Shown piece by piece: positions 1 through 18,531 of a stretch of 64,000 bases of DNA. Below the pieces are notes generated by a model that ran no database searches, was not told the origin of the DNA, and was given only the letters and a program-made list of their open reading frames with translations. The stretch lies in NCBI GenBank assembly GCA_000004695.1, contig CM000151.3:7392001-7456000 (forward strand), read 5' to 3'. The translations under genes and the position numbers were made by a program. Within the stretch, counting starts at the first letter, position 1, and each line of letters begins with the position of its first letter. The stretch comes from Dictyostelium discoideum. Lineage: Eukaryota.

Positions 1-400
1 TCTGATGCTTTTTCTTTAGTTTCTTCTTCTTCTGATCTTGATATAACTTTAATTTTCTAAAAAAAATAAAAAAAAAAAAATGTTAATAATAATTTTTAAT
101 TAAAAAGTAAATAAATAAATAATAATTACCATTTATATATTTAATATTTTAATAATTCTTTTATTTATATTTTATTTATTTATATTTATTTTAATATGTT
201 TTAAAAAAAAGTTGTGATTATTTTTATTTATTTTTATATGTACAAGTAATATCACACTTTTTGGCTGTCGTTCGTTTTTTTTTTTTTTCCAAAAAAAAAA
301 AAAAAAAAATAAAAAATAAAATAATTCGAAAAAAAAAAAAAAAAAAAAAAAATTAAAAATTAAAAATTAAAAATTAAAAAATTTTTATATTTTAAATTTA

Positions 401-1264
401 TTATTGTTCTAATTTATCAGATATTTCATTTAATTTATTTGCAGTTTCTTTTTTTGTATCATTATATTTTTCATTTAGATCATTTGATAATTCATCAGAT
501 TTCTTTTTTAAATCATTAGAGACTTCAGTACCTTTAACTTTTAATTGTTCAACCTTATCATTTGCGTCATCTACTATATCTTCACCTTTTTTCTTTAAAT
601 CAGTTGTCAATTCACTTGCTTTATCTTTTGCTTCTTCATATTTTTTAGATCCATCTTCTTTTAAGTCTTCACCTTTTTTATTTAAATCATTTGTAATTTC
701 ATTTGCTTTATCTTTTGCTTCTTCAACTTTGTTTGAAGCATCTTCTTTTAAGTCTTCACTTTTTTGCTTTAAATCATTTGTAATTTCATTTGCTGTCTCT
801 TTTACATCTTCAACTTTTTTAGAGCCATCTTCTTTCACTTGTTCACTATTGTCTATTGCTCCACTAATTATTTCATTTGTTTTGGTTTTCAATGTTTCAT
901 ATCCTTCATTCATTACATTGGTGGTTGTATTGTACATATTCACTGCTGCATCTTTTGTAACCTCTACTGCTGTTGAAATTGAATCTGAAACATATTTAAC
1001 ACCTTCATTAATTGCATTGGTTGTTTCATTATAAACATTTGCACCTTTTTCTTGGGCTAATTCAACTGCTGTTTTACCTGTTGAAATTGCATCATTTTTT
1101 AAAGTTTCAACTTTTGATTAATTAAAAAAAAAAAAAAAAAAAATAAATAATAATAATAATAATAATTAATGTTAATATTATTATTTTATTGATAAATAAT
1201 TAAATATAAATAAAAAAAAAAAAAAATTACCTTGTTTATTTAAACTATTATCATTATCAGCCAT
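401..1264 (-). CDS. LEA-like / amphipathic 11-mer repeat protein; two exons complement(join(401..1110,1231..1264)) with a short AT-rich intron
   Basis: Exon 1 reads MADNDNSLNKQ, followed by a GTAAT donor. An AG acceptor at 1111-1112 puts exon 2 in frame with the 180-aa ORF (401..943). The protein has repeated KEDxSKKVEExKxxANEITNDLxKKxEDL units typical of LEA group-3-like repeat proteins. Confidence 0.55.
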
Positions 1265-1375
1265 TTTTTTTGTTTGTTTTATTTATTTATAATTTATGTT
1301 AATATTTTATTTTTATTTTGTTTTTTAATATAATTGAATGAATAAAAAAAAAAAAATTAAATCCTTTTATAGGTT

Positions 1376-1430
<55 letters not shown>

Positions 1431-2280
1431 TATTAATTTATTTGAAAATTATATTATAATTTTTTAAAAAAAAAAAAAAAAAGATAAAAATCTTTTTCCT
1501 TCCTTCTTTCGTATTCCATGATAATTATTTGAAAATTTTTTATGATAAATATTAAATTTTCGATTAAAAAAAAAAAAAAAATAGATAATGAAGAAATTAT
1601 TTTTTTAAAAAAAAAAAAATATTATCGCATCATTTTCAAATAAATATAATTTCTCTATACACACAATATATAACTAAATAAAAAAATAAAAAAATAAAAA
1701 AATAAAAATAATAATTTAAATTAAAAAATAAAAAAAAATTCAAACGCACTGTGTGTTGTTGTAATTATTATTATTAAAAAAAAAAAATATTAATTTTGTT
1801 TAAATAAAGATTATAATCTTTATTTTAATAAAAACTATAATTTTTATGTAATATGAAATTAATAACAATAAGAGGAAAAAAGTAATAATTAATTATTGTC
1901 AAAATAATTATTTTTAAAAAATAAAAATTAAAAAAATAATTTCAATCTTTTATAACCCAACAACAACCAAACCATTATAAATCTCTATTGCAATATTTAT
2001 AAAAAAAAAAAGTGTTTGGAAGTTTGGAGAATCTGAATGTTTAATCATAAAATTCCTAGTTTTTAATCGATCCAATTTTTTTTTATGTATATAAATAAAA
2101 TATAAATATGATTTTAACTTTTTTAATTTTTATTTTTTATTATTTTTTTTTTTTCTTTATAATTTTAAAAATAAACCATCAATAATTTATTTATTCAATA
2201 TTTAATATATATTAAAAAAAAAAAAAAAATTATTAAGTATTTTTATTTATATTATTTAATTTGAAATTAGATTTTTCCAA

Positions 2281-2461
2281 TCAATAGATAGTATCTTCTG
2301 AAAATGGATATTTGTCGGGCCGCCCTACAAAACCTGATATTTGTAAAATAAATTAACGTTGGAAGTCTAACTGTTAATCTTCTAAAAAAAATATAAATAA
2401 GAATCCTCAAGATGTCTATGAAATGATATTTAGTAATCCAATAGAAATAATATTATTTGTC

Positions 2462-2527
<66 letters not shown>

Positions 2528-2745
2528 TTTTTAATTTAAAATAAATAATATGTAATAAATATTAATTATGAACAAATATGAACAGTATTCTTTTATTTAT
2601 ATTAAATAAGTTGCATTTAGTTTTTTTATTTTTTGGTAATTTTAGTTAAAATTGATACCTTGTGATAATGGCATAGTATTACCATAGTTGATTGTATTTG
2701 TACTACGACGGCAAACTGTTTCCGGCTGTCTGAGCCAATTATTTA
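2281..2745. repeat. Copy 1 of a ~450-bp dispersed repeat ('repeat A'). Its 3' part (about 2640-2745) duplicates the last ~100 bp of ALDH7 coding sequence and its stop codon.
   Basis: The sequence is near-identical to 5040-5345 and, more divergently, to 8101-8330. Examples are 'ttttccaatcaatagat...tttagtaatccaatagaaataatat' and 'ttggtaattttagttaaaattgataccttgtgataatggcatagtattaccatagttgattgtat'. Confidence 0.8.
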
Positions 2746-2899
2746 CAAAAGAAGGTTTAGTATTAAATGAAAAATCTCATAATAGAAACAGGTACTAAAA
2801 TATACTTTTTCAATAATATAAAAATCATTGTATTTATTAGATATTTAAAAGTTAATTATGTAAAATATTAAAAAAGTAAACAGTGATCTATTTTTTCTT

Positions 2900-3990
2900 T
2901 ATCATTTTCTAATAATTTCAATTGTTTGATTAAAACCATCTACTGAATCTGAAAGAGTTGAATTTGAATCAACGTAAATATTATTTTAATCATAATTATG
3001 ATATCCAAATGAGAACCTTTACGATAAAATCTTGTATAGGTTTTTTTTATTTCTAAAAAACTAGAAAACATAAAGATGGTGTTTTAATCTTTTTCAATTG
3101 TTTTCTTTAATCTTGATGCTTGTTGTTTTACATATGAAGGACCAACTTTTATTTTTGGGTGACCGTGCCAATAGGTACCATGGAATTCCATTACTATACT
3201 ATCATTTCCATTTTGTAAAAATCTTTAATACAATGAAATTCCAAACCATCTTCTGAATCTGAAAGAGTTGTATTTGAATCAACGCAGTAAATATTATTTG
3301 AACTATAATTAATTTTCAAATTAGAACCTTTACGATAAAATCTTGTATGGGTTTTGTTATTTTTAAAATACCAGCAAATTAAAAGATGGTGGTGTTTTAC
3401 AATTCCTAAATCTTTTTCAATTGTTTTCTTGAAGATTGTTCATTTTCATTTAAAGGGTCAACTTTTGATTTTGGGTGGCCAATAGGTACCATGTTATTCT
3501 ATTCTATACTATTATTTCCATTCTTGACCTGACACATCTGGATGAATGAAAACACAATCTTTAAATGGAATACGCAGGGTGTTTAATGTTTTGCATATAT
3601 AAGCGACTGCAGCTTTGCTTGTACCTGAAATATTACAATATGGACAAACACAATCAGATGAAGGATTATTTAAAATATTTTGGTTAAGAAAATCAATTCT
3701 TGTAATAAATCTTCTTTTTGTAAGATCTTTAATACAATGAAATTCCAATTTAATAAGAGAACCTGGTGTATACATATCACCTTCTGGTTTTTCGATTAAA
3801 TATTGTGATAATTGAATGCAATTGTTGTTAATAGATTTTGACGGTGGTACCACTAATCTTTGTTTGTACTTTGGACATGGACAACCATTTTCAAAAAACA
3901 ATGGCTCAACTAAAAGATACATTTGTAAAAATTACTATTATTGTCTCCATGGTAATTATATAAACTTTTACCTAATTTATTGTTGAACAT
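2900..3990 (-). pseudogene. Degenerate, truncated copy of a zinc-ribbon + Vsr-like endonuclease gene (copy 1), with internal tandem partial duplications at 2900-3220 and 3230-3530.
   Basis: The spliced reading complement(join(3512..3909,3972..3990)) gives MFNNKL|VEPLFFENGCPCPKYKQRLVVPPSKS...CVCPYCNISGTSKAAVAYICKTLNTLRIPFKDCVFIHPDVSGQEWK*. Relative to copy 3 it lacks the VDGF...IEFHGAYWHGHP nuclease core through a ~57-bp deletion. Two rearranged downstream copies of the C-terminal segment are present. A 62-nt GT..AG intron follows a 19-nt first exon. Confidence 0.5.
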
Positions 3991-4137
3991 TTGAAGTAAT
4001 AGGTTTATCAATTTTTTGAGTATTATTATTTAATGATGTGGTTTGATTTGTGGCATCATTTCTTCCATCTATTAAAACTTGATTGTTTTCAATTGTTTTA
4101 GATTATAATATGTCTGTATTTTAAATTTAATTCTAAC

Positions 4138-4180
<43 letters not shown>

Positions 4181-5039
4181 TATTATTATTTTTGTTTTTA
4201 TCAAATTTGAATAATAAAAAACTATAAAAAAAAGGCGTTTTGGGTCGATATGGGGCGACACTGTTTTTTTTTTTGACTCAAAACACCTTTTTTTAAAAAT
4301 AATCAACACCTTAATTTTTCTCTTTTAGCAAATATATATTTAAAATTATAAAAAAAAAAAAAAAAGGCCATTTTTATATTTAAAAATAATATAAAGACTG
4401 ACACTTAGATTGGAGTTTGTCAAAAAAAATTTTTTTAAAAAATCTATTTTTTAAAAAAAAAAACTGGAAATAGGCATTAAAAAAATTAAATTAAATTATT
4501 TTTAATTTACTTCCACACCAGGAGTGTGAGTCTATAAAAATTATAAAAGCTAATTCCTTGAAATAAATGAAAAAAGGAATTGTCTTTGAAATTCCTTTGA
4601 CCATAAATTTTTATAAAAATAGTACAAATGATTGAATGTATATATTTGTTATATTTTAAAGAGTGGTGATAATTGAGAATGGATTTAAACTACTAGCCAG
4701 TGGTTGGTCATGATTCCAACTACGTTCTAAAATTAATGAACATTAATGAAAACTCTTCTTTACAATCTTTTGAATCTTAAACTTAATAATTATTATTATT
4801 ATTATTATCATTATTATTAAAATTATAATTATTAATAATAAAAAAAATAGTATTATTGTTAATACATATTTTCATATTTCTTTAAATTTTATATCACAAT
4901 AATGAAGGGAACAAAATATAATGGTTCGAGCAAAAAATGAAAAAAAAAAAAAAATAAAAAAAAATAATTAAAAAAAAAAAAAAAATAAAAAATAAAAAAA
5001 TTTGGGCAAATTTGAAAATATATTTTCCTAAACGGAACA

Positions 5040-5345
5040 AACCTGGATTTATTGACACAGATGATCTAATCATGTATTGAGACCAATAGAAATAATATAA
5101 TTTGTCAAAAATAACAATAATAATAATAAATAAATATTTTTAATTTAAAATAAATAACATGTAATAAATATTAATTATGAACAAATATCAACAATATTCT
5201 TTTATTTATGTTATGTAAGTTACATTTGGTTTTTTTTTTTTGGTAATTTTAGTTAAAATTGATACCTTGTGATAATGGCATAGTATTACCATAGTTGATT
5301 GTATTAGTACTACGACGGCAATACTGTTTCCAGCTGTCTGAGCCA
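5040..5345. repeat. Copy 2 of repeat A, overlapping the 3' end and 3' flank of the ALDH7 gene. This is probably the ancestral context.
   Basis: It aligns to 2440-2745 and 8220-8330. It contains the ALDH7 stop codon and C-terminal codons. Confidence 0.8.
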
Positions 5346-7415
5346 GATTCTCTACCACCTCCGGTCTCTTTTTCACCTCCAAAGGCACCACCAATTTCAG
5401 CACCGTTTGTAGCTACATTTACGTTAACTATACCACAGTCAGATCCGGTAGGTCCAAGCCATTTGAAGATATTCTTTTGATTGTTTGTGAAGAGGGAAGA
5501 TGAGAGACCTTGTGGGACTTCATTATTCCAGGCAAAAGCATCGTCAAGATTTTTGAATTTCATTATGTAGAGAATTGGAACAAAGAGTTCAGTCTTTACG
5601 ATTGGAGCATCATGTTCAATGGCAACGACGGTTGGTTCAACAAAGTTTCCACCACTGATATCGAGTTTATTACCACCAATGACGACCTTACCACCTTGCT
5701 TTTTTATTTCTTCAAGACCTTCAGTGAATTCTTTAACAGCGCTTTGGGTGTGGAGTGGACCTACTAAAACACCTTCTTCAAGTGGATTACCGATTTTAAT
5801 GGTTTTGTAGGCTTTGGTTAAACGTTCCAAAATGGTGTCATACAATGATTCGTGAACGAATAAACGTCTACAAGTGGTACAACGTTGTCCAGTGGTACCA
5901 ACAGAAGCAAAGAGAACGGCACGGAGAACGAGTTCAATATCAGCATCTTCAGCAACAACGATGGCATTGTTACCACCTAATTCGAGGATGGTCTTACCAA
6001 AGTAACCGTGGACGGTACTAGAGATACGACGACCGACTTCAGTTGAACCAGTGAATGAAATTAAACCGAAACGTTTATCTTGAATCATTTGTTCACCAAC
6101 GGTACGACCTGGACCAATGAGGACACAACAGACGGCTGGGTCGACATCATTTTCAACTAAAACCTTTTCAATGATTTTGCTAACGGCTAATGTAATGAGT
6201 GAAGTGGTGGAGGCACCTTTCCATAATTGGACGTTACCGCAAATCATTGAGATTGCAGCATTCCAACCAAGTACGGCACATGGGAAATTGAAAGCAGTAA
6301 TGATACCAACTAAACCTAATGGATTCCAGGTTTCCATTAAAATGTGATTTGGACGTTCAGATGGCATCACTTGACCATTGATTGATCTACTTAAACCAGT
6401 TGCATAATCGCATACGTCAATGAATTCTTGTACTTCACCTTTAGCTTCAATGTAAATTTTACCCATTTCTAATGAAATTAATTTTGATAATGGTTCAATT
6501 TTTTCTCTCATGGCTTGACCAATTAATCTAACAATTTCACCTCTTCTTGGAGCTGGTGTTAATGCCCATTTTACTTTTGCTGCTAACATTGCTTGAATAC
6601 ATGTTTCATATTCTTCTGGTGCAGCCTATAAAAAAAAAAAATTATTAAATAAAAAAAAAATTAAATATGTTAATTATTTATTTATTTTATTAATTTTATT
6701 AATTAATAATATGATAATTTTATTAATTAATAATATGTTTAATTTTATTAATTAATAATATGATTAATTTTATTAATTAATAATATGTTTAATTTTAATT
6801 AATCATGTGATTATTTTTATTTATTGACCATGTGATTAATTTTATTTTTGATCATGTGATCATTTTTATTTATTGGTCATGTGATTAATTTTATTTATTG
6901 ATCATGTGACTAGTTTTATTTATTGATCATGTGATTAATTTTGTTTATTAATCATGTGACTAATTTTATTTATTGATCATGTGATTATTTTTATTTATTG
7001 GTCATGTGATTATTTTTATTTTTTGATCATGTGATTATTTTTATTTATTGATCATGTGATAATTTTATTTATTAATCATGTGATTAATTTTATTTATTAA
7101 TCGTATGATTAATTTATTTTTTTTAAATTATTTATATATATTAAATATTTTATTTAATGTTTATTTGATTTTTTTTTTTTTTTATCCATTTTTTTTTTTT
7201 TTTTTATCCATTTTTTTTTTTTTTTTTATCCATTTTTTTTTTTAATTTTTTTTAATACATACACCTCTAACAGTTGCAATAACTTTATTATTTGTTGGAT
7301 TTAAACATTTGATGATTTCACCAGCACCTCCCCATTTTCCATTGAAGACTCCATCATTATTTTCAGCTTTAATGCCTAATTCAGCCAAGAATGGATATTC
7401 GTTAAAGGTAGTCAT
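5249..7415 (-). CDS. Aldehyde dehydrogenase family 7 (antiquitin / alpha-aminoadipic semialdehyde dehydrogenase, ALDH7A1 orthologue); complement(join(5249..6625,7263..7415))
   Basis: The protein aligns along its whole length to antiquitin. Matching segments include [109 protein letters not shown] and [15 protein letters not shown]. Exon 1 reads [51 protein letters not shown], followed by a GTATGT donor. The acceptor ttttatAG precedes [13 protein letters not shown]. The intron is about 637 nt. Confidence 0.85.
6640..7140. repeat. Intronic minisatellite in the ALDH7 intron. About 4 copies of 'attaattaataatatgat(a/t)aattttatt' are followed by about 13 tandem copies of a ~25-bp unit 'tgatcatgtgattaattttatttat'.
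   Basis: The periodicity is directly visible. Each unit carries a CATGTG (E-box-like) core flanked by the TGATCA palindrome. Further repeats of tatccatttttttttttt (x3) follow at 7180-7250. Confidence 0.9.
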
Positions 7416-7885
7416 TTTTTAATTTATCTGTTTTATTAGAAAATGTTTTTTGTGAAGTGAAAAAAAAAAATTTTGAAATTTAAATTTTTTTAATTTTATG
7501 TGACGACCAGAAAAAAAAAAAAATAAAAATAAAAATAAAAAAAAATAAAAAAAAATAAAAATAAATAAAAATAAATAAAAAATTAAAAATTAATTAAATT
7601 TTAAAAAAAAGTCTGTGATTTTTTCGTTTTTGTTTTTTTTTTTTTTTTTTTATACAAACCACCTTCATAAAGTTTAAAAATATTTTATGTCGACATATTT
7701 TAACCTTCCTTTTTTGTAAAAACTATTTCCCACCAAAGAATTTTGTAAAATAGAAGTTCCCATTTATAAATTATTTTTTTTAATTTTTTAATTTTATTTT
7801 TTAAAAAGAAATCAAGTTTTTTTTTTTATTTTTTTTATTTTAAATTTCCAATTAAAATAAATTTGATTTTATTTGGTAATGATCT

Positions 7886-7922
<37 letters not shown>

Positions 7923-8100
7923 AAAATAAAAAAAATGTGTTACGGACCTAAAACTTTGAACTAAAAAAAAAAAAAAAAATGTTTTCTGTTTGTAAAAAAA
8001 AAAAATTTTTTCAGTTTGTAAAAAAAAAATTTATTGATGGTTTATTTTTAGAAATATATATATATATATGTGGTTATTTATTTTTAATAATAATTTGATT

Positions 8101-8330
8101 TTTCCAATAAATAGATTGTATTTTCTGGAAACGGATATTTGTTTGCCCTTTCAAAACTGTTATATTTGTAAAATCAATTATTTGATCACTGGAAGTTTAT
8201 GAAATGACATTTAGTAATCCAATATAAATAATATTATTTGTCATAAATAATAGTAATAATAATTAAAATTAAAGAAATAAATATTAAATTTTGAAATAAA
8301 TAATATGTAACAAATATTAAGTTAATGTTT
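8101..8330. repeat. Copy 3 (partial, diverged) of repeat A, immediately upstream in plus coordinates of Vsr-like gene copy 3.
   Basis: 'ttttccaataaatagattgtattttctggaaacggatatttg...tttagtaatccaatataaataatattatttgtcataaataatag' matches 2281-2520. Confidence 0.7.
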
Positions 8331-8697
8331 GAAAACAAACATTTCAAAAAAAAAAGGTTAAAATAATTTAATTTTAAATTTATTTATAGATTTTTTTTTT
8401 TGAAGATTTTTAAAAGATACGATACAAGATTTAAAGAGGCTAATAGATTTTAGTATATTTGGTTTTACAACGTTTAATTCAAAGACGAATTACTCATTAC
8501 TCAATTTCGCAACAACAATTAAACATTATACACAAAATATTTATCGATCCTCATTAGAGATATTTAAACAAATAAACTTCTTGTATTTGTAGTCCCCATG
8601 GCAATATCGTTTTCATTTGAGAACAAAACAATCAAAAATAATTACATAAATAAAATAAAATATATTATACATAGTTTTAATTATATTTGTTTATTGT

Positions 8698-10366
8698 TTA
8701 AAATCTTGTATAGGTTTTGATATTTTTAAAATACCAGCAAACTAAAAGATGGTGTTTTACAATTTCTAAATCTTTTTCAATTGTTTTCTTTAATCTTGAT
8801 GCTTGTATATTTTCATTTAAAGGGTCAACTTTTAATTTTGGGTGACCATGCCAATAGGCACCATGGAATTCTATTACTATACTATTATTTCCATTTTTTA
8901 TAAATCCATCTACTCTATAGGATTTGGAGCCATCAGCACATTTTAAAATATATTCTTGGCCTGACACATCTGGATGAATGAAAACACAATCTTTAAATGG
9001 AATACGCAAGGTGTTTAATGTTTTGCATATATAAGCGACTGCAGCTTTGCTTGCACCTGAAATATTACAATATGGACAAACACAATCAGATGAAGGATTA
9101 TTTAAAATATTTTTGTTAAGAAAATCAATTCTTGTAATAAATCTTCTTTTTGTAAGATCTTTAATACAATGAAATTCCAATTTAATAAGAGAACCTGTAT
9201 ATTATTGATTTGAATCTTCTATTAGAATCTTTAATATTACGAAATTCCAATTTAATAAGAGAACCTGGTGTATACATATCACCTTCTGATTTTTCGATTA
9301 AATATTGTGATAATTGAATGCAATTGTTGTTTATAGATTTTGACGGTGGTAACACTAATTTTTGTTTACACTTTGGACATGGACAACCATTTTCAAAAAA
9401 CAATGGCTCAACTAAAAGATACATTTGTAAAAATAATCCAGTTGGAAAATAAGTTTTACAAACAATTCTTACTTTGATTCTTGATTTAATTGATAATTTT
9501 ATATAAAATTCTAAATCAAAGAGATACGCTGGTTCACCAGCAAAACCTTCTTCAACTGATTGTTCAATATATTCTTGGTCATTCTCTTTTCCAAACTGTT
9601 TACTAGTATTTGATTTATAATCTAAGTATTCACACTGACCACCATCATCTTTATGTATATTATCATCTTCAAGAAAATCTTGATCTTTACTACATTGATT
9701 TGAATTTGTTAAATATGGATAACCATCATTGAATTTTATAAAATTTTCTTTAAATTCTGGAAACACATCAAATATAGATTTTGATTTAAAACAAATTAAA
9801 ATCCTTCTTATAAACAATGAGTGGTTTGGAAGATTGAATTTTAAACAAGATTCACCGATTTCACTTCTTTTAGTAGGAACTTGATCATACATAACACTTA
9901 AATGACCACCACAGATTTCGCAAAACTCTATACCATTTAAATAGATTAAATCAAACTTTTTAATGATCTTTTGTTAAATAAACTTGAAATTAAACCTGCT
10001 TCAACATATTTATCAATTAATGTAACCATTTCAATACGTGAAGGTAAAGGATGATCTTTTTTAATGAAATTTTGACAATAATAAATTCTACCATTTGGTT
10101 TTACTGATATTAATTTTTCATTTTGCCAAGGATTATTTGATAAATAATTATGTTCTAATATGGTAATTTGAGGCATTTGTGTGTCCCTTATCCTTTGCAC
10201 GTTCCTCTAGTGGATTAGATTGATTTTTATTTGGTGCAACGATATGAAAATGTGTTACTATAAAATTTATAGCATCTTTTAATTTAAATGTAAAAGTACA
10301 ACTATTATCTTTTTTAGACCAAGTTTGTGGAGAGAATAAATAATAAATGGAAAAACCAAACTCCAT
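8698..10366 (-). pseudogene. Longest copy of the zinc-ribbon + Vsr-like (very-short-patch-repair-type, PD-(D/E)xK) endonuclease gene family. It is interrupted by frameshifts or stops and a 72-bp internal tandem duplication.
   Basis: Three consecutive minus-strand ORFs in different frames cover the gene (10148..10366, 9946..10200, 9182..9892, then 8698..9180). The C-terminal segment is ...CPCPKCKQKLVLPPSKS...CVCPYCNISGASKAAVAYICK...YRVDGFIKNGNNSIVIEFHGAYWHGHPKLKVDPLNENIQASRLKKTIEKDLEIVKHHLLVCWYFKNIK. The motif VDG...FHGxYWHGH...R.D...LVxW resembles the Vsr endonuclease core FVDGCFWHGHHC...RD...WRVLxVWE. The SLIKLEF-coding segment is tandemly duplicated at 9182-9260. Confidence 0.55.
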
Positions 10367-10621
10367 GTTGGATTGGATTTTAAATTGTTAGAGTCCATGT
10401 TCACACAATTCACAAGTATGATTAATTTTGATTTTAACATATTAATTCCAGTAAGCTAATTTTTTACATATTAATTTCAGCCCAAAAACAGGTTGTCTCT
10501 ATGGTAATTATATAAATGTTTAGATAAACATAAATTGTTTTTGATGGCATCAATATGCTCCAATGATTAATAATAAAATTTCTAAATTTAAAACCATTTG
10601 ATTTTATTAAGGTAATGACCT

Positions 10622-10655
<34 letters not shown>

Positions 10656-10780
10656 AAAAAATAAAAATAAAAAAAAAAAAAAAATAAAAAAATGTTTTCC
10701 GAGCTAAAAACTTAGTTTTCCATTTGTTAAAAAAAAAAAAAAAATAATTTCCACACAAAACATTTTAAAAAACAAAAAAA

Positions 10781-11413
10781 ATGAAACAACAACAATATTT
10801 ATTATTATCTCCAATTTTAATAATAATATTATTTATTAATATTATTAAAGGTGGATATGTTTCAATTCAATATTTTAATAATGATCAATGTGATCAAGTT
10901 AATTTTATAAATTATTTTTTGGAAGGTTCTTGTGTTCAAGAACAAGTTATGAAATGTAATTCCGATAAATCAATGATTGAATATAATATTTATGAAAGTT
11001 GTTCAGGTAATCAAGAACCAATTGGTACAAAACAAATTCCAACCAATACATCATGTGAAACAAGTGCTGCAATTTATTCATGTATTGATGAATTACCAAA
11101 TCTTTCACCATCAGCTGATGAAAATAATTTTGTAACAACAGTAATTTTCAATGGTAGTGATTGTTATAATTATAATATTAATAATATTCAATATGTTGAA
11201 CAACAACCAACTGGTCAATGTGATTATGATGGTGCTTTTGGTTCAATTATAACTTGTACACCAACTAAATTCATTAAACAAAGATATGAAGGTTCAAATT
11301 TTTGTATAAATCCACCAACTAATAATTATACTTATACATTACCAATTAATGATTGTTCATTTAATGGTTATAATATTATACAATTTTGTAATTCACCATC
11401 ATCATCTTCTTAA
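10781..11413 (+). CDS. Secreted Cys-rich, Asn-rich protein; tentatively ponticulin-like family
   Basis: An N-terminal signal-like hydrophobic stretch (LLLSPILIIILFINII) is followed by a spaced-Cys pattern of the Y..Y..DxxC....GSC type seen in Dictyostelium ponticulin-like proteins. There is no C-terminal hydrophobic GPI signal in this ORF. The family assignment is from memory only. Confidence 0.4.
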   Translation: MKQQQYLLLSPILIIILFINIIKGGYVSIQYFNNDQCDQVNFINYFLEGSCVQEQVMKCNSDKSMIEYNIYESCSGNQEPIGTKQIPTNTSCETSAAIYSCIDELPNLSPSADENNFVTTVIFNGSDCYNYNINNIQYVEQQPTGQCDYDGAFGSIITCTPTKFIKQRYEGSNFCINPPTNNYTYTLPINDCSFNGYNIIQFCNSPSSSS

Positions 11414-11619
11414 AAAAAAAAATTAAATAAAAAAAAATTATAAAAAATTAAAAAGATATTTTTTTTTAAAAAAAAAAAAAAATTTATATTTATCCATTCG
11501 TTTTTTTATTTTTATTTTTTTTTTTTTTATTTTTTTTTTTTTCGTCTAAAAAACATTTTTTTTATTTTATTTTTTTTATTTTTTTTTATTTTTTTTTTTT
11601 TTAATTAATAATTAAAGAA

Positions 11620-13092
11620 ATGTTAAATTTACTATTTAAACAAACTAATTTTATAAATAAAATATCAAAAAATATTCAAAATAATAATATAAATTTAATA
11701 AAACCATTATCAATAAATTATTTAAATTTATTTTCAAATAACAATAATAATAATAATAATAATAATTTTATAAATGTAAATAATATAAATAATAATAATT
11801 TTAAACAAATATATAGTAATAAATGTTTTTTTTCAAATAAAAAAGAAAAAAAAATTAAAAAAGAAAAACAATCGATTTTAAGAGAAAAAAGTAAAAAAAG
11901 AAAACTTATAATTGAAAATACAGATATAAAATCATTACCAAAATCAGATTTAATTTATGGTCAAACAAATGAAGATTTAAAAAAGTTAAATTATATTATT
12001 GGTGAAAAATCAGCAAAAAGAATAAAAGAATCAACAAGAGCAGATTGGCATGTAAGACAACAACAAAATAAAATATCATCATCATCGACAAATTATTTAT
12101 TATTAAAATCTAAATTATCAAAAGATTTAATTAATGCACCATTATCAGAAACTCTAAAAATTAAAAAACAATTAGAAGAATTAGAAAAGAATGGAAAAAT
12201 ATCAAATATTGATCCAAATTCAAAGAATCAAAAATTTAAAAATCAACAATTTGATCCAAAACAATTGGAAAAACTTAAAGAATTAAAATTGGGTAAATTT
12301 AAACAAAATAAACCAAAAAGGGGTACAACAAAATTGGAAACCATTAAAAAAGAAGTTTCAAAAGGTATTGAAAGATTTTTTGATTCAAAAATGAAATTCA
12401 TTGGTGCTGCAAAGAATATAGATTCATTCCTCCCTGAAACTCTACCAGAGGTCGCATTCATTGGTAGAAGTAATGTTGGTAAATCAAGTTTAATCAATGC
12501 ATTAACTCAACGTGGTTTAGCCAAAACTTCAGATAAACCTGGTCAAACTCAGAGTATAAATTGGTTTGAATTAGGTTCAACACTTTATTTAGTGGATTTA
12601 CCAGGCTACGGTTTTGCATTTGCCAAAGAGACATTGGTTGAACAATGGAGTGATATTACTATTCACTATTTAACCGAACGTAAATGCATTAGTTGTGTTT
12701 TCATATTAATAGATTCACGTCATGGTTTAAAAGATAGTGATCGTAATTTACTATTGGAATTGGATAAAAAGAAAATTAAAACTCATATAATCCTAACAAA
12801 AGCAGATTTAACAAAACCAGAAGATCTTGTAAAAAGAATTTCAATCACAAATCAAGAGATTCAAACCAATTATCGTTATTCAACAACACCAGTACTACCA
12901 ATTAGTTCTAAAAATTTATCTGGTATCTCTGATCTATCAAAATTAATTAAAGTTATGAAATTAAAAGTAAAACCAATTAAAATTAATCCAAATTTACAAT
13001 CAAAACAAATTTTATCACCACAAGATTTTCAATTAAAAAAATTAAAAAATCTGGAAAAGAAAAAAGAAAAATTAAAAAAATTAGTTAAATAA
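11620..13092 (+). CDS. EngB/YihA/YsxC-type ribosome-biogenesis GTP-binding protein with a long Asn/Lys-rich N-terminal extension (probably organellar)
   Basis: The G1 motif is FIGRSNVGKSSLINAL. The G3 motif is LVDLPGYGFA. The G4 motif is TKADL. All sit in EngB order and spacing. Confidence 0.8.
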   Translation: MLNLLFKQTNFINKISKNIQNNNINLIKPLSINYLNLFSNNNNNNNNNNFINVNNINNNNFKQIYSNKCFFSNKKEKKIKKEKQSILREKSKKRKLIIENTDIKSLPKSDLIYGQTNEDLKKLNYIIGEKSAKRIKESTRADWHVRQQQNKISSSSTNYLLLKSKLSKDLINAPLSETLKIKKQLEELEKNGKISNIDPNSKNQKFKNQQFDPKQLEKLKELKLGKFKQNKPKRGTTKLETIKKEVSKGIERFFDSKMKFIGAAKNIDSFLPETLPEVAFIGRSNVGKSSLINALTQRGLAKTSDKPGQTQSINWFELGSTLYLVDLPGYGFAFAKETLVEQWSDITIHYLTERKCISCVFILIDSRHGLKDSDRNLLLELDKKKIKTHIILTKADLTKPEDLVKRISITNQEIQTNYRYSTTPVLPISSKNLSGISDLSKLIKVMKLKVKPIKINPNLQSKQILSPQDFQLKKLKNLEKKKEKLKKLVK

Positions 13093-13267
13093 ATAAATTT
13101 TTTTATTTTTTAGATTTTCAAAAAAATAAAACAAACGTTATTAGTGTTGTTTGTCAAAGTTGTCTTAAATTTTAGTTTTTTTATTCGCACAAGTTTAATT
13201 ATTATTATTTATTATTTATTATATTTAATATTTACTATTATTTATTATTATTAATTATTATTTTAAA

Positions 13268-14350
13268 AAAATTATTAGGTATGTGCATACTATAGCCAAG
13301 CTGCTGGTGGTGATTTTGTTTTTTTGGGACCAAACAATGGTAGCGTACCTCACCACGGCAAAGATGGATTAACATTTACATGCATAACCTCGGAATTGGA
13401 AAATGATTATTTCAATTGCCTAAGATATACCACAAATGTAATGTATAGATACAAATAAATCACTACAGAACCATTCATTAATTTTTATGCCGACAGCAGC
13501 CTCAGGGGCAAATGTATCGTTATCATCACAGTTGAAACACCTGGTATATGTCAAGAAAGTCCAAACTGTTCAAAAATTCATGGAACATCACGTGACAAGT
13601 ATAGTGGTTGGTGTACTTATGATGGTAATACAAAAGGTTTAAATTGTGATCAATTAAATGCAAATATATCATCAGTATTAACACCAACAATCAGTGGTGG
13701 TGATGTTATAATAAATGGTGATTTTTCATCAATTTATAATATTAGTTCAAGTATTACAATTTCAATTGGTACTTCAATTTGTAATAATATTAATTTCTCA
13801 AGTAATAAATCACAAATCATATGTACAATTGGTGAAGGTGAAGGTTATCAACAAATTAAATTATCAGATGGAAATGGTGCAACATTAATATACCATGGAT
13901 TTTATTATGGTAAATGTAATGATCACATCGGTAATTGTAAAACTTTAAATTTACAATTAGATTCAGTAACACCAACATTTGTAACTGGTGGTCAAGTTTA
14001 TTTAAAAGGTAATTTCTCAAATGTTAAAGATCTTAGTCTAACTATTAAAATCGGTGATCTAGAATGTTCAAACGTTAAATTCAACGATACTAATTTCAAA
14101 GTTTTACAATGTTCAATTGAACAAGGTGAAGGTGTCAAAGATATTATAATATCATCTGGTCTATTATCATTTTCAAAAGAAAAAGCATTCGAATATCAAT
14201 ACTAGAAATGTCCACTCGATTGTTCAACACCAAATGGTACTTGTAATGTTAAAACTGGCAATTGTGCATGTAATAATGAACATTTCGGTGATAGTTGTGA
14301 ATTTATTCAATGTCCACTCGATTGTTCATCACCAAATGGTAATTGTGACA
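13268..14350 (+). pseudogene. Gene fragment or pseudogene of an IPT/TIG + tenascin-type EGF repeat cell-surface protein (Tgr/Tiger-like or ComC-like family)
   Basis: A ~240-codon open frame (13480..14203) has no in-frame ATG. It encodes IPT/TIG-like segments such as ...TPTISGGDVIINGDFSS...ICTIGEGEGYQQIKLSDGNGA...TPTFVTGGQVYLKGNFSNVKDLSLTIKIGDLECSNVKFNDTNFKVLQCSIEQGEG. A TAG stop follows. Two EGF-like repeats then read KCPLDCSTPNGTCNVKTGNCACNNEHFGDSCEFIQCPLDCSSPNGNCD. Upstream there is no room for a 5' end before the EngB gene. Confidence 0.5.
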
Positions 14351-14900
14351 GTAATATTGGTATTTATAAATACCTGTTCATTATTTTTTTTTTATTTTTT
14401 ATTTTTATTTAATATTTAAATCAAAAAATATTAAAAAAAAATTAAAAAAAATTTAAAAAAAAAAAAAATTAAAAATTAATTAATCTTTTTATCATTTTAA
14501 TTATAATAAAATGTTGGTCAAAAAATAATTTTACTAATTAACTTTTTTTTTTTTTCATTTCTTCAGTTTTTGTAATTTTCTAGTTTTTGAGAAGTTCCAA
14601 GTTTTTTTTATTTTCTATTTTTTTTTTATTTTTTTTTTTAATCTAAGATCTTAGTATAAAAAAAAAACTATGTTTAAAATTTTAAAAAAAAAAGGACATT
14701 TATTTTAAAAAAATTGGATATTGGAGTGAAAAAGATTAATTTGTTTTTAATATTAAAATCTTTTTTTATTTATTTTTTAATTTTTTTTTTTTAGGCAAAA
14801 ATAATCCAACAAAGATATAAAAAAAAAAAAAAATAATTAAAAAAACTTTAACAAATCAATAAGTTGTTTTTTTTTTTTTTTTTTTTAATAAATATTTGAA

Positions 14901-14941
<41 letters not shown>

Positions 14942-15006
14942 AAAATAAATAAATAAATAAATAAATAAATATAACCCACGTACATATAATAATAATAATA
15001 ATTATA

Positions 15007-15041
<35 letters not shown>

Positions 15042-15170
15042 TATTACAATAATTTATTTATTTTTATTTTATTTTATTTATTTTTGATAAGAATGCGCTA
15101 TAAATATCAAATGTAAAAAAAAAAAAAAAAAAAAAGTTTTATATTCCCTCTTTGAAATTAAAAAATTAAT

Positions 15171-15806
15171 TTATTCTTCTTCTTCTTCAATAACAAAATC
15201 TTCAGGAGAATAAATAACTTTTAATAATAATGAACAACTTGGGCAAATTGCAATTTCTTCACCTTGTAAAATTTCTTCTTCTGTAATTCTAAATCTATCA
15301 CCACTATAATTAATTATAAATAATATTATTAGTTTATTATATTATTAAAAATAAATAAATTTCTAGAGTTTTTATAAATATAAATATATAATATAAATAT
15401 AATAAACATACCATGGACAAGGATAATAAAAAATACGTTCATCTTCATTGAAATCCATATCCTCAATATCAATTTCATCATAAAATGAAGTTGAATCAAG
15501 TTTTGTTGTATATGCTATAATTTTTGGTTTACCATCTGGTGTAACTAAATTATTAATTTTTGCAGCCATTGCAGCACTAAGGTTTGTAAATCCAGATGAC
15601 AATGTTTCTTCTTCATTATTATTATTATTATTATTATTTAAAGGTTTAGGGTTTATTGAATTTGTTTCTTTTTCTGTATCTGTATTATCATTATTATTAT
15701 TATTATCATCTTCTTTGATTTCTATATTTTTTATTTCACTTGTTATTTTTTCAACAATATTTTCATTTTTATTTTCATTATTATTAATATCTTCAGATAC
15801 TGTCAT
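15171..15806 (-). CDS. dph3: Diphthamide biosynthesis protein 3 (DPH3/KTI11, CSL-type zinc finger) with a long Asn-rich N-terminal extension; complement(join(15171..15303,15412..15806))
   Basis: The spliced product ...FYDEIDIEDMDFNEDERIFYYPCP|CGDRFRITEEEILQGEEIAICPSCSLLLKVIYSPEDFV matches the DPH3 consensus (YPCPCGDxFxIT...CPSCSL.I.V.Y). The intron runs from a GTATGT donor to a tatAG acceptor and is 108 nt. Confidence 0.8.
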
Positions 15807-16512
15807 TATGTGTGTATATTATATTATTTATGTATTGGTTTTGTTTTTATTTTATTTTTTATTTTTTATTTTCCTATTAATTTTTAAATCGTTAATTTTT
15901 TTTTTCTAATTTTTTAAAAAAAAGGGATTAAAAATAAAGAAATAAATTATATCGCCAAACGTTTTCTTGAGAAAATAAATATAAAAATAAAAAAAAAAAA
16001 AAAAAACGAACGTTAGGATGAAATTTTTTTTTTTTAATTTTTTTTTTTAATTTTTTTAATTTTTTTTTTTTTTTTTTTTAATTTTGGGTAATTAAAAAAA
16101 TTAATTAATTAAACGGAAGTGAGTGAATTTACAATTGGATTATAATATTGACAATCTGAGCATTCAACATTGTTTAAAATTTTATAAATAGATTTTTAAA
16201 AAAAAAAAAAAAAATTTAGAAAAAGAGAGTTAAAACAAATAAAAAAAAACACAGAACAAATTAACTTTGAAAAAGGGTAGAAATTTCATGAAAAAATGTA
16301 ATGTATGAAAGCAATATTTCTTCGTTACAACAGTATAAAATGTAAATTAAAATATTATTATTATTGTTATTGTATGTTTTATTATGATATTACTCAACAA
16401 TATAATTAAATAAATTATTAAAATTAAATAAATAAATAAATATTAAATTAAATTATAAAAGTTAAATAAAATAAATATGAAATATATAAATATAAATAAA
16501 TAAATAAAAAAA

Positions 16513-16571
<59 letters not shown>

Positions 16572-16794
16572 ATTAAATTAATAAATAAAATATAATTCAA
16601 GTCCTTCTAGAGTATACCACTTTTGTTACAATTGGTGGCAGGGCAAAATTCTGTATTTCATTCAATTTCATCGGTATTCAATTTCATTTCATACATTCAT
16701 TTTAGTATTCGTCAGGGTATTTTTTTTTTCAACGAGTAAATAAATAAATAATAATATATAATAAAATAGAAAAAAAAAAAAAAAAAAAATTAAA

Positions 16795-17329
16795 ATGTCA
16801 AATAAATATTTTACTTTCTCAGGTGAACCAGACACCATAGTATTTTCCCAGTTTTTGGTTGGTTACAAATTATTATATAATGAACATTCAAAAAGCAATT
16901 TTTTCAAACACTTAAGAGGTGATGCAGCATTATTGTTCATTGGGAAGACCACCGATTCAAATTCATTAGATGATATAATCAATGTTCATCGATCTATATA
17001 AACAAGGGAGTGTCACTCCATTAGAGAAATTAATACATTTTCCGAAATCAAGATTCAATAATTTGCAACAATTAATTCACATAGTTAAATCAAATGTTGC
17101 AAACGTTACAGAACCAGAATTAGTTCGTATTTATACTGAATCTCTTCCACCATATTTAGATTCAAAATGGAGAAGCAAAACATCAGATCGATTGTTGATG
17201 CCATTGATTTGTCAAGAAGAATAGAAATTGCATATATCAATAGAGATGGTAGATCATTATTCAATGGTCAAATAGATAATTCAAAATTCACAAATTACAA
17301 TTTAAAATTAAATAATATTAATATTATCA

Positions 17330-17427
<98 letters not shown>

Positions 17428-18531
17428 TTTAATAATAATTATGAATCTTCTTACTCATCTACAAAATTTCAATCAATTCCATCAACAAGATATATAAGTA
17501 ATAATAACAATTCAAACTATAATAATAGAAATAATAAATATAATAAGATCAAATAATAATTTTGATTCAAATAGAAATTATAACTTCAGTTCAAATTATA
17601 GTGATTATAATAACAATAGTTATAACAATTATAGTAATAAAAATAATTATAACAATTATAATAATAATAATTTTAATAATCATAACAATTTTAATAATAA
17701 TTTTTACAATAATCATAAAAATTATTATATTAATAATAATAATAATAAAAATAATTATTATTATTATATCAATAACAATAATAAAAATAGTAATAATATC
17801 AGATTTAATAATAATGGATTAAAATGCCTTAATTGTGGTAGAGTAGGTCACATACCATTAAATTGTTGGATTAGCAAAAATAATAATAACCACAATAATA
17901 AAAATAATTCAATTAGAGATGAGGAGGAAACAATGATGATAATAATGACATCAATGATAATAACAATTATGATAATAATGAAAACAATAGTCCTTATCCT
18001 GTTAGTTCAATTAATGTATTGGGAGGTAGATTATTGGCAACATTAAATATTTTTGGTAAACCAATTAAAGGCTTAGTAGATTCTGGTTCTTTGTTATCAA
18101 TTTTATGGTCAAGTGTTGCAAAGCAATTAAGTTTACAAGTAATTCCAAAGAGAGTAAAGTTTACAACAGCATATGGACAAGAAATTTATTCAACTGGATC
18201 TGCAGAAGCAATTGTTAGTTTGGGTACAGCAATCAATAATTGTGAATTTATCATAGTTCAAGATAAAGTATTAAATGATAGTTGTATCTTTGGGTTGTCA
18301 GTATTGAAGAATGTAGGTATCAATATAGGAATCTGTGAGAATAACATTTACTGTCCTAAAACTGGTGGTAGTCAAGCATTAGAAACCAAATATGGAGGCT
18401 TTGCACAATCAATATGTAGTTTGAAGCAATCTACATCGGAAAATATCGATGATGGTGAAACTAGATTAAATCATGTTGATGCTCTTTCAAGAAATCCAAT
18501 TAACGATATACAAGATTTTAAAATAAAATAA
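16795..18531 (+). mobile_element. Remnant of a Ty3/gypsy-type LTR retrotransposon (Skipper- or DGLT-like): a frameshifted gag with a CCHC zinc knuckle, then an aspartic protease ORF. It is truncated before RT and integrase.
   Basis: Three consecutive + ORFs (16795, 16982, 17167) lie in different frames. A C-X2-C-X4-H-X4-C knuckle, KCLNCGRVGHIPLNC, lies at about 17826-17870. The protease ORF 18019..18531 contains LVDSGS (the D-S/T-G active site). A poly(A) run at 18570-18620 ends the fragment. Confidence 0.55.

Follow-up and report, generated by a model that had tools for sequence, protein, structure and literature searches.

Among described systems, the free-standing homing endonuclease genes of the Vsr-like (EDxHD) type, such as I-Bth0305I and those of the 'fractured genes' (PMC3239194, PMC2677866), are among the closest to the arrangement considered here, in which a nuclease-like gene lies next to duplicated pieces of the 3′ end of the aldehyde dehydrogenase gene ALDH7 on chromosome 2 of Dictyostelium discoideum AX4. 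The window analyzed is a 64-kb stretch of this chromosome, and all positions are those of the window. A Vsr-like PD-(D/E)XK domain, predicted in the case of the amoebal gene, is present in both systems. As in the EDxHD homing genes, the gene lies beside a conserved housekeeping gene or at its margin, occupies a fixed site that is filled in some close relatives and empty in others, has a decayed open reading frame (ORF) in many carriers and has relatives that are multi-copy in large viral genomes; the host gene also becomes more divergent the nearer one comes to the element. Unlike them, the gene at the AX4 locus is nuclear and eukaryotic and, in its intact form, very large (1443 codons), with three Cys modules and a Ser-rich stretch; moreover, the insert is flanked by target duplications of 100–500 bp, no intron or intein context is found, and no activity or target is known.

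Integrative elements at gene 3′ ends, exemplified by bacterial islands in the ends of tRNA and protein genes with their att duplications, are similar in that the original end lies beyond the insert and a substitute end keeps the gene readable. They differ in that no integrase or recombinase is detectable here, the duplicated segment is far longer than an att core, the host is a eukaryote and the substitute end varies by haplotype. Within the same organism group, the Dictyostelium tgrB1/tgrC1 locus (PMC12745789) displays local duplications, inversions and gene fragmentation between near-identical genomes, together with tree discordance, whereas the present case concerns a single-copy metabolic housekeeping gene under strong purifying selection instead of a family of polymorphic recognition genes, a ~3.6-kb island and a nuclease gene at its edge; the word 'aldehyde' is absent from the paper on the tgrBC hotspot (PMC12745789). 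Capture by Pack-MULEs or Helitrons likewise places a detached piece of a host gene beside an element-like ORF, but termini, a transposase or Rep-helicase and dispersed copies are lacking here, and the fragment seemingly lies at its ancestral location.

Taken alone, the three-copy repeat would be a local duplication scar of modest interest, and it is the context that matters. A model amoeba harbours, in its nuclear genome, a putative nuclease gene of giant-virus type; all examined members of the D. discoideum complex carry it at one and the same site, no examined sister species has it, and it is intact in one isolate. ALDH7 is structurally different in each carrier and more diverged among near-identical isolates than between two nuclease-free species, yet it is strongly constrained. 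We propose, with a probability of roughly 55%, that the repeats are insertion and repair scars of the native ALDH7 3′ region, left by the insertion of the nuclease gene and by later repair and re-duplication, and are not the outcome of transposon capture.

Three copies of the ALDH7 3′ region and two nuclease-like genes

The window is extremely AT-rich, with a local guanine-cytosine content of 17–27% and abundant homopolymer and microsatellite tracts. ALDH7 occupies positions 5249–7415 on the minus strand (exon 1, 7263–7415; exon 2, 5249–6625, stop codon included), as delimited by tblastn with the D. firmibasis orthologue. Its minus-strand ORF 5249–6589 encodes an aldehyde dehydrogenase (Pfam Aldedh, E=1e-126), and the protein is P83401 / XP_642906 by cluster membership. 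Copy 1 (2265–2740, 476 bp) is a composite and the sole full-length version of the repeat. It begins with a detached ALDH7 coding fragment (2645–2740, minus strand) corresponding to the last 32 codons, continues with a 3′ untranslated region (UTR)-like part (2438–2644, minus strand) that carries a pseudo-stop at 2642–2644 and a (TAA)n expansion at about 2462–2520, and ends with a distal part termed LP (2265–2437, minus strand), i.e., sequence that natively follows the ALDH7 3′UTR and is homologous to positions 8092–8218 of copy 3. The UTR-like part was delimited by its match to 5083–5249 and by a multi-genome alignment. About 100 bp of detached coding sequence had been reported in the preliminary description of this DNA; the fragment measures 96 nt, and a 1-nt deletion further upstream shifts its frame in AX4. 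A tblastn search picks up 22 in-frame residues of the ALDH7 end at 2710–2645, and in the D. discoideum genomes L001 and L006 the corresponding fragment forms an uninterrupted ORF of 31 codons.

Copy 2 (5083–5349, minus strand, 267 bp) is the present 3′ end of ALDH7 and consists of the 3′UTR (5083–5248), the stop codon (5249–5251) and the last 33 codons (5252–5349); it has only the coding fragment and the 3′UTR in common with copy 1. Copy 3 (8092–8322, minus strand, 231 bp), located 3′ of nuclease pseudogene B, shares with copy 1 only the distal 3′UTR and the ~170-bp LP segment beyond it. The core common to all three copies is limited to ~90–130 nt of AT-rich sequence (ccaatagaaataat...aaatattaa).

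In a BLAST comparison of the region with itself, 2477–2740 matched 5085–5349 with 91.4% identity over 268 columns (E=3.6e-101). Further matches connect 2438–2484 with 5083–5129 (93.6%), 2265–2355 with 8092–8180 (81.7%, E=1.9e-14), 2411–2482 with 8192–8263 (90.3%, ungapped, E=4e-21) and 2465–2568 with 8221–8324 (80%), and the orientation is direct for all copy-to-copy matches. An artefact of low-complexity AT-rich sequence is ruled out, as the matching segments are complex and reach E-values down to 1e-101. The extended direct similarity described earlier as a three-copy, ~450-bp dispersed repeat is therefore real and close to where it had been placed, but copies 2 and 3 are partial and the repeat is not one unit present three times. 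It is also local rather than dispersed: the three copies and both nuclease-like genes match nothing outside 2265–10700 in the window (BLAST). Copy 2 does overlap the ALDH7 stop codon, as had been noted; its start, set at 5040, was drawn too wide and takes in a separate feature, the relic of another ALDH7 3′ end at 5020–5085. The suggested local segmental duplication holds at the DNA level, given the E-values of the copy pairs (3.6e-101, 4e-21 and 1.9e-14) and an identity of 84–98% between the two nuclease-like genes, and so does the coupling of the repeat to a nuclease-like gene: gene A is followed by copy 1 and gene B by copy 3, each on the 3′ side. This parallel placement indicates a joint duplication of the nuclease gene with the neighbouring ALDH7 3′ region.

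The nuclease-like ORFs correspond in the databases to 'hypothetical protein DDB_G0277059 [Dictyostelium discoideum AX4]', a protein for which the literature search found no paper. Pseudogene A (2905–3932, minus strand), located by tblastn with the conceptual protein (residues 316–536), is 5′-truncated and frameshifted. Its C-terminal tail is encoded at 2905–3030, with the stop codon at 2902–2904, and the translated tail matches that of the intact ORF in D. cf. discoideum L091; the segment for the nuclease domain is tandemly duplicated (2933–3215 and 3243–3526), and a 136-codon ORF remains at 3512–3922. Pseudogene B, DDB_G0277059 (8698–10367, minus strand), carries frameshifts, is 5′-truncated relative to the 1443-codon L091 ORF and encodes the Zn-ribbon and Vsr-like domain at 8701–9080; it contains an internal duplication (9140–9197 versus 9213–9267). 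The A and B regions are paralogous over 2265–3932 versus 8092–9434, with 82–98% identity (BLAST). The gene-B insert is located in the ALDH7/CfaA intergenic region between direct repeats of ~100 bp, the left one at 7842–7960 and the right one at 10576–10705, in the promoter region of the CfaA-like gene (ORF 10781–11413). Positions 7842–7935 and 10576–10671 are 86.6% identical (E=6.7e-24), and this sequence is single-copy in L003, a genome free of gene B.

End-against-end BLAST of the boundaries of copies 1–3 and of the A and B inserts returned, as candidates for terminal inverted repeats (TIRs) or other termini, only AT-rich matches of 7–23 nt (E of at least 0.011). Pfam and PHROGs searches of the ORFs, and of the N-terminal 400 residues, found no transposase, Rep, helicase or reverse transcriptase. 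With no TIRs or terminal structures, no transposase or Rep and no copies elsewhere in the window, the earlier idea that a repeat element had captured the ALDH7 end is not upheld.

A separate observation concerns a 20-nt sequence just outside LP at copy 1 (2166–2185, aaaaataaaccatcaataat), whose reverse complement recurs with 19/20 identity at 8026–8045, outside the LP of copy 3. The match, which was seen by eye, may reflect a small inversion at the duplication boundary, or chance.

Comparative loci and the order of events

The syntenic locus was retrieved from nine other assemblies via exact-protein look-ups, among them D. discoideum L001 (GCA_054859355.1) and L006 (GCA_054859385.1), D. cf. 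discoideum L003 (GCA_054859205.1) and L091 (GCA_054859235.1), two strains of D. citrinum (L089, L090), D. firmibasis (L002) and D. purpureum (L004). Judging from the accession series and organism labels, the GCA_0548 assemblies probably stem from PRJNA1300491 (PMC12745789). In the flanking genes, AX4 groups with L001 and L006, and L003 and L091 fall inside the same complex (94.4–99.5% identity in the CfaA-like gene); the identity of this gene to the complex is 88–89% in D. citrinum and 82–84% in D. firmibasis. Nuclease-gene sequence and a detached ALDH7 3′ copy occur at all five complex loci (AX4, L001, L003, L006 and L091), with a different arrangement in each. No nuclease-like sequence is present at the locus in D. 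citrinum (two strains), D. firmibasis or D. purpureum, each of which has one contiguous ALDH7 3′ end. Across the ten loci examined, the association with the nuclease gene is perfect.

AX4 carries a truncated gene A together with gene B. In L001, both genes start at residue ~260, with 97.9% identity between the two, while L006 retains gene A from residue 394 and a short gene-B fragment. L003 contains only an inverted C-terminal nuclease fragment and an inverted ALDH7 fragment and has no gene B. Gene B is also absent from L091, in which one uninterrupted ORF of 1443 codons (14022–18353, plus strand) encodes a Ser-rich N-terminus, three Cys modules, a Zn-ribbon with the Vsr-like domain and a 55-residue tail. 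AX4 gene B corresponds to about the last ~620 codons of this ORF, and the region encoding its tail corresponds to AX4 2905–3030. The ORF is intact in L091 only; the nuclease copies of AX4, L001, L003, L006, L007 and L008 are truncated or frameshifted.

The latter two, contigs from runs SRR28564540 and SRR26869268, match gene B with 97–98% identity and have 181 extra bases (positions 672–852) at window position ~9907–9911, so that AX4 has a deletion at this point. The N-terminal part is frameshifted in the gene-B contigs of L007 and L008 as well.

L091 also contains the ALDH7 3′ region twice, each copy spanning 27 codons, the UTR and LP (~500 bp); one is attached to the gene, and the other is detached and inverted. 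With respect to the CfaA-like gene, the block comprising ALDH7 and the nuclease gene lies in inverted orientation, with the inverted ALDH7 3′ copy at the breakpoint. LP follows the 3′UTR in both of these copies, is found at the same flank in L003 and is absent in L001 and L006. L091 shows that the coding end, UTR and LP form the native, contiguous ALDH7 3′ region of the complex; in AX4 this unit is kept by copy 1 only.

Palindromic and inverted duplicates are present in other genomes too. On the reverse complement of L001, a 153-nt palindrome lies 3′ of gene B (10036–10188), and inverted copies of the ALDH7 3′ coding end occur with an inverted fragment of the nuclease C-terminus (6119–6175 versus 6670–6726, and 5540–5855); on the reverse complement of L003, inverted duplication involves 9333–9412 versus 10004–10081. 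Such duplicates show that copying has affected one short stretch of a few hundred bases again and again.

Three lines of evidence bear on which copy is native. Copy 1 abuts the conserved downstream flank in AX4, L001 and L006; the detached fragment of L003 is near this flank but inverted, and the detached copy of L091 does not abut it. Copy 1 is ~1.15 kb away from the neighbouring gene in L001 and ~1.4 kb away in AX4, comparable with ~1.05 kb for the intact D. firmibasis stop codon. Finally, the D. firmibasis 3′ flank is colinear with the DNA beyond copy 1 (best high-scoring segment pairs of 110–124 bits), while the sequence downstream of copy 2 or of the L001 resident end yields only weak, low-complexity matches to it (42–60 bits). 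Together, flank, distance and colinearity suggest that copy 1 is the native ALDH7 3′ end at its ancestral position. The gene fragment, described previously as moved along with the nuclease-like element, would then have been left in place.

The attached ends fall into two types. In L001 and L003, the attached ALDH7 3′ end ('T-type') differs from copies 1 and 2 and reads ...W(T/K)QY(M/S)KRSTVTLNY, followed by an insert and then by 10 residues; many codons are replaced, e.g., CGT AGT by AGA TCA. AX4 and L006 carry a contiguous 'C-type' end, which is copy 2 in AX4. Directly after the 3′UTR of copy 2 lies a T-type relic (5020–5085, minus strand; tblastn match 5085–5041), which reads WSQYMIRSSVSINPG and then GTTTGTTCCGTTTAG. 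The relic follows the 165-nt C-type UTR in both AX4 and L006, includes the first ~15 nt of the intron-like insert and, in an alignment that includes the L006 relic, has the AGA-TCA codons and the CAG|GTTTGT junction in common with the resident 3′ ends of L001 and L003. Its presence in AX4 and L006 implies that the C-type haplotype equals the T-type with an additional ~265-bp patch of native-type 3′ end, and the simplest reading of this patch is a repair or gene conversion templated on the detached copy, so that at least part of the transfer may have run from the detached copy into the gene. In favour of such conversion, AX4 copies 1 and 2 have the derived GGC TCA in common, whereas copy 1 of L001 keeps the GGT TCT of D. 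firmibasis.

The insert of the T-type ends is intron-like in itself: it spans 223–240 nt within the last 14 codons, has GTTTGT...TAG ends, a T-tract and a TACTAAC box, and is located at 6464–6686 on the reverse complement of L001 and at about 9780–10021 on that of L003. AX4, L006, L091 and all outgroups lack this insert. If it were spliced canonically, the reading frame would be shifted; an alternative in-frame donor exists in L001 and not in L003.

The sequence relationships, the presence/absence pattern across the ten loci, the relic and the flanking duplications are direct observations; from these, and by parsimony among the five carrier genomes, we infer an order of events, a transfer from copy 1 to copy 2, and breakage followed by repair, not transposition, as the source of the copies. 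A large, selfish-looking nuclease gene would have inserted directly 3′ of ALDH7 in the common ancestor of the D. discoideum complex, duplicating the last ~27–32 codons, the 3′UTR and ~170–200 bp beyond. Copy 1 would represent the 3′ end that ALDH7 had before the insertion; it would have stayed next to the former downstream flank, beyond the 3′ end of the new gene. Copy 2, in the AX4 haplotype, would have been laid down by gene conversion or by synthesis-dependent strand annealing templated on the detached copy, and this repair would have pushed an older, diverged 3′ end downstream, where the relic at 5020–5085 may be what survives of it. Copy 3 would result from a further duplication of the unit of nuclease gene and adjoining ALDH7 3′ region into the ALDH7/CfaA intergenic region, flanked by the ~100-bp target duplication.

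Several points weigh against this scenario. Target duplications of 100–500 bp have no demonstrated mechanism. Copy 3 is only partly colinear with the copy-1 region, 8322–8699 being unrelated to 2568–3025, and both nuclease-like genes of AX4 are pseudogenes. The direction of transfer is also debatable: copy 2, AX4 copy 1 and L001 copy 1 have 8, 5 and 9 unique differences, respectively, which amounts to a near-trichotomy with conflicting sites, and it is just as possible that a deletion between direct repeats turned the AX4 form into the T-type end of L001 and L003. The start of the detached copy differs by ~15 nt between AX4/L001 (GSDSW...) and L091 (W...), so the duplications may not all descend from one event. 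In addition, the copy search covered the 64-kb window, not the whole AX4 or whole outgroup genomes.

The nuclease family, ALDH7 divergence and rival explanations

Distant relatives of the C-terminal ~125 residues of the nuclease-like protein were found by an exhaustive HMMER search. They carry Zn-ribbon repeats (DUF723 or DUF4379) followed by a conserved module with the pattern C..C, S, E, D-G, E-F-H-G-x-Y-W-H-G-x-P, W-E, of which distant homologues keep the C..C, S, E, D, E-H-G, H and W positions. Both the fold and the catalytic-core motif D ... E-x-H-G ... W-H-G-x-P ... W-E agree with a Vsr-like PD-(D/E)XK nuclease. A profile search returned 237 relatives, several of which are named 'G:T-mismatch repair DNA endonuclease (Vsr)' by the Joint Genome Institute, and the top profile matches in the PDB were three Vsr structures, at a non-significant E~0.6; a direct PDB sequence search with the C-terminal 218 residues gave a chance match only. 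An AlphaFold model built from a 52-sequence alignment reached a mean predicted local distance difference test (pLDDT) score of 66.8, with about 75–89 in the core, while the single-sequence model of DDB_G0277059 was unusable (pLDDT 32.5). IMG/VR contains 102 relatives, many of them in metagenome-assembled genomes of giant viruses, in some cases with three on one contig. We conclude with moderate confidence that the gene encodes a predicted Zn-ribbon and Vsr-like PD-(D/E)XK nuclease of a giant-virus-associated family. Outside the nuclease domain, no tyrosine or serine recombinase or DDE integrase was matched in Pfam, the full 1443-residue L091 protein not having been scanned separately.

A rolling-circle HUH/Rep motif set, 'CTFTFK...THFHIV...YYCQNFIKK', had been considered in the N-terminal part of gene B and was dropped for lack of Pfam, PHROG or PDB support; the 'CTFTFK...' stretch is one of the three repeated Cys modules in L091.

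Homologues among annotated proteins are confined to this locus, the one exception being a distant paralogue found in a single isolate. This nuclease-domain paralogue, P0125 (368 aa, 36% identical; L005 10001–11283), lies at an unrelated locus between Snf7 and Cullin-binding genes. Its assembly is the sole one with the paralogue and also carries the intact 1443-codon gene. The context of P0125 contained nothing convincing as a flanking gene-fragment duplication.

The body of ALDH7 is unusually divergent in carriers of the nuclease gene. Synonymous divergence (dS) in exon 2 amounts to 0.33 between AX4 and L001, 0.32 between AX4 and L003, 0.25 between AX4 and L006 and 0.34 between L001 and L006, as against 0.03–0.07, 0.085–0.126, 0.04–0.07 and 0.025–0.03, respectively, in two flanking genes. 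Over all isolates, dS ranges from 0.25 to 0.42 in ALDH7 and from about 0.03 to 0.13 in the flanking genes. The ratio of non-synonymous to synonymous divergence (dN/dS) in ALDH7 is 0.03–0.09, i.e., the protein is under strong purifying selection. L001 and L006 are ~99% identical in the flanks and 91% identical in ALDH7; in a sliding window, most of the ~21-kb loci show 0.4–2% mismatch, the exception being a block that begins within gene A, takes in the ALDH7 3′ end and exon 2 and extends to intron 1, with 4–14% mismatch or unalignable sequence. Exon 1 is back to 99.3% identity. Exon 2 is 95.7–96.0% identical between D. citrinum and D. firmibasis, 90.4–94.2% within the D. discoideum complex and 90.0–93.4% between the complex and these two species, whereas the CfaA-like gene ranks in the opposite order. 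Three-taxon branch lengths computed from the exon-2 identities are ~5.4% for AX4, ~7.5% for L001 and 2.5% for D. citrinum; deep coalescence alone is insufficient to explain them, and they point to an elevated substitution rate in the cassette-carrying lineage. The ALDH7 tree follows the structural haplotype, (AX4,L006) versus (L001,L003), with 33 sites versus 14 and 5; this signal peaks in the 3′ half and conflicts with that of the flanks. Measured against D. firmibasis, non-synonymous divergence is 2.7–3.8 times as high in the T-type genes as in AX4, which is consistent with a compromised C-terminus.

An origin of the ALDH7 body from a donor outside the discoideum/firmibasis clade was not supported by quartet counts, in which the complex haplotypes group against D. 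firmibasis and D. purpureum (25–30 versus 10–19 sites).

The best-surviving alternative extends the insertion-and-repair account by a causal role for the nuclease. A homing-like or otherwise break-inducing selfish nuclease, active in some haplotypes, would nick or cut at or near the ALDH7 3′ end, and repeated repair of the breaks from diverged homologues or nearby paralogous copies would produce copies 1–3, the relic, the inverted fragments of other genomes, the inversions and the local excess of point substitutions in ALDH7. It is tempting to see the nuclease as the cause of breaks, rearrangements and excess substitutions, an attractive inference with several observations in its favour, among them the perfect association across the ten loci. 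Vsr-fold enzymes are a known family of homing endonucleases (PMC3239194, PMC2677866), the present family is multi-copy in giant-virus contigs, and the gene is present or absent at one fixed site among close relatives, with an intact 1443-codon ORF in at least one carrier (L091). Each of the five carriers has its own arrangement and its own ALDH7 3′ fragments. Exon 2 is less conserved within the complex than between D. citrinum and D. firmibasis, in opposition to the CfaA-like gene, the divergent L001–L006 block is confined to the interval from gene A to intron 1, and ALDH7 remains constrained despite this excess. When L001 is compared with L006, divergence at third codon positions increases towards the nuclease side, from 8% at the 5′ end of exon 2 to 40% in its last 150 nt; part of this gradient is intrinsic, as the control pair of D. 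firmibasis and D. purpureum shows a rise as well, from 25% to 43%. Old recombining haplotypes, for their part, could explain the haplotype-wise tree, and much of the pattern, without any action of the nuclease. The nuclease has no known cleavage activity or target site, genes A and B of AX4 are frameshifted, and classical homing makes no flanking direct repeats, whereas ~100 bp are duplicated at gene B and the 267–500-bp ALDH7 3′ region at gene A and in L091. We therefore regard the causal role as a tentative possibility, clearly less probable than insertion and repair alone. The same reservation applies to the joint claim that a Vsr-like nuclease of giant-virus origin acts, or acted, in cis and might have turned the essential, slow-evolving ALDH7 into a hotspot of hyper-recombination and hypermutation, which would account for the duplicated and inverted 3′ ends, for two old haplotypes that cross lineages and for a several-fold synonymous excess that peaks on the nuclease side. 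If causal, the locus would be a rare case, in a eukaryotic nucleus, of a free-standing selfish nuclease reshaping a host gene, and a natural system for break-induced mutagenesis and templated repair in the genetically tractable Dictyostelium.

Neutral segmental duplication, through slippage or unequal recombination in an AT- and repeat-rich region, would make the nuclease gene a passenger and the ALDH7 divergence unrelated. The low GC content (17–27%) and the homopolymer and microsatellite tracts could seed slippage, tandem duplications did arise locally inside genes A (2933–3215 versus 3243–3526) and B (9140–9197 versus 9213–9267), and both AX4 nuclease genes are dead. This explanation nevertheless appears unlikely: the ALDH7 3′ duplication accompanies the nuclease gene in 5/5 carriers and is found in 0/4 non-carrier loci, the same two junctions recur as breakpoints, the L091 inversion included, and across the neighbouring 15 kb L001 and L006 do not diverge to a similar degree, either in structure or in nucleotide sequence. 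Were the nuclease not causal, the locus would still be a compact case of old structural haplotypes, checkable by polymerase chain reaction in wild isolates.

Capture by a transposable element in the manner of a Pack-MULE or Helitron, or a processed retrocopy of the 3′ end of ALDH7 mRNA, is largely refuted and highly improbable: the detached fragment, with its stop codon and 3′UTR, does adjoin a nuclease-like ORF and is free of the intron-like insert seen in the resident ends of L001 and L003, but no copy or insert boundary has TIRs or termini, no transposase, Rep, helicase or reverse transcriptase is encoded (Pfam, PHROGs), no copies lie outside the locus within the 64 kb and protein homologues are limited to the locus and one distant paralogue, a poly(A) tail is missing, copy 1 runs on into genomic LP, which also follows the attached 3′UTR in L091, so that the copy was made from DNA, and the outgroups have no intron at that position, so that its absence from copy 1 is the ancestral state.

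Minor features of the locus

A search with ARAGORN and Rfam over positions 1–14000 revealed no tRNA or structured RNA in the repeat or the spacer. Intron 1 of ALDH7 is mostly filled by a tandem array (6641–7136) of ~20 copies of a 25-bp unit with a consensus near TTATTTTTATTTATTGATCATGTGA; few parts of the locus diverge as strongly between isolates, the mismatch between AX4 and L006 being 10–17%. The adjoining minus-strand ORF at 401–943 encodes a Lys/Glu/Asp-rich protein with internal tandem repeats of ~87 nt (29 codons; 579–748 versus 666–835, 87%), and its counterpart in all relatives is a gene for 230–247 aa downstream of ALDH7.

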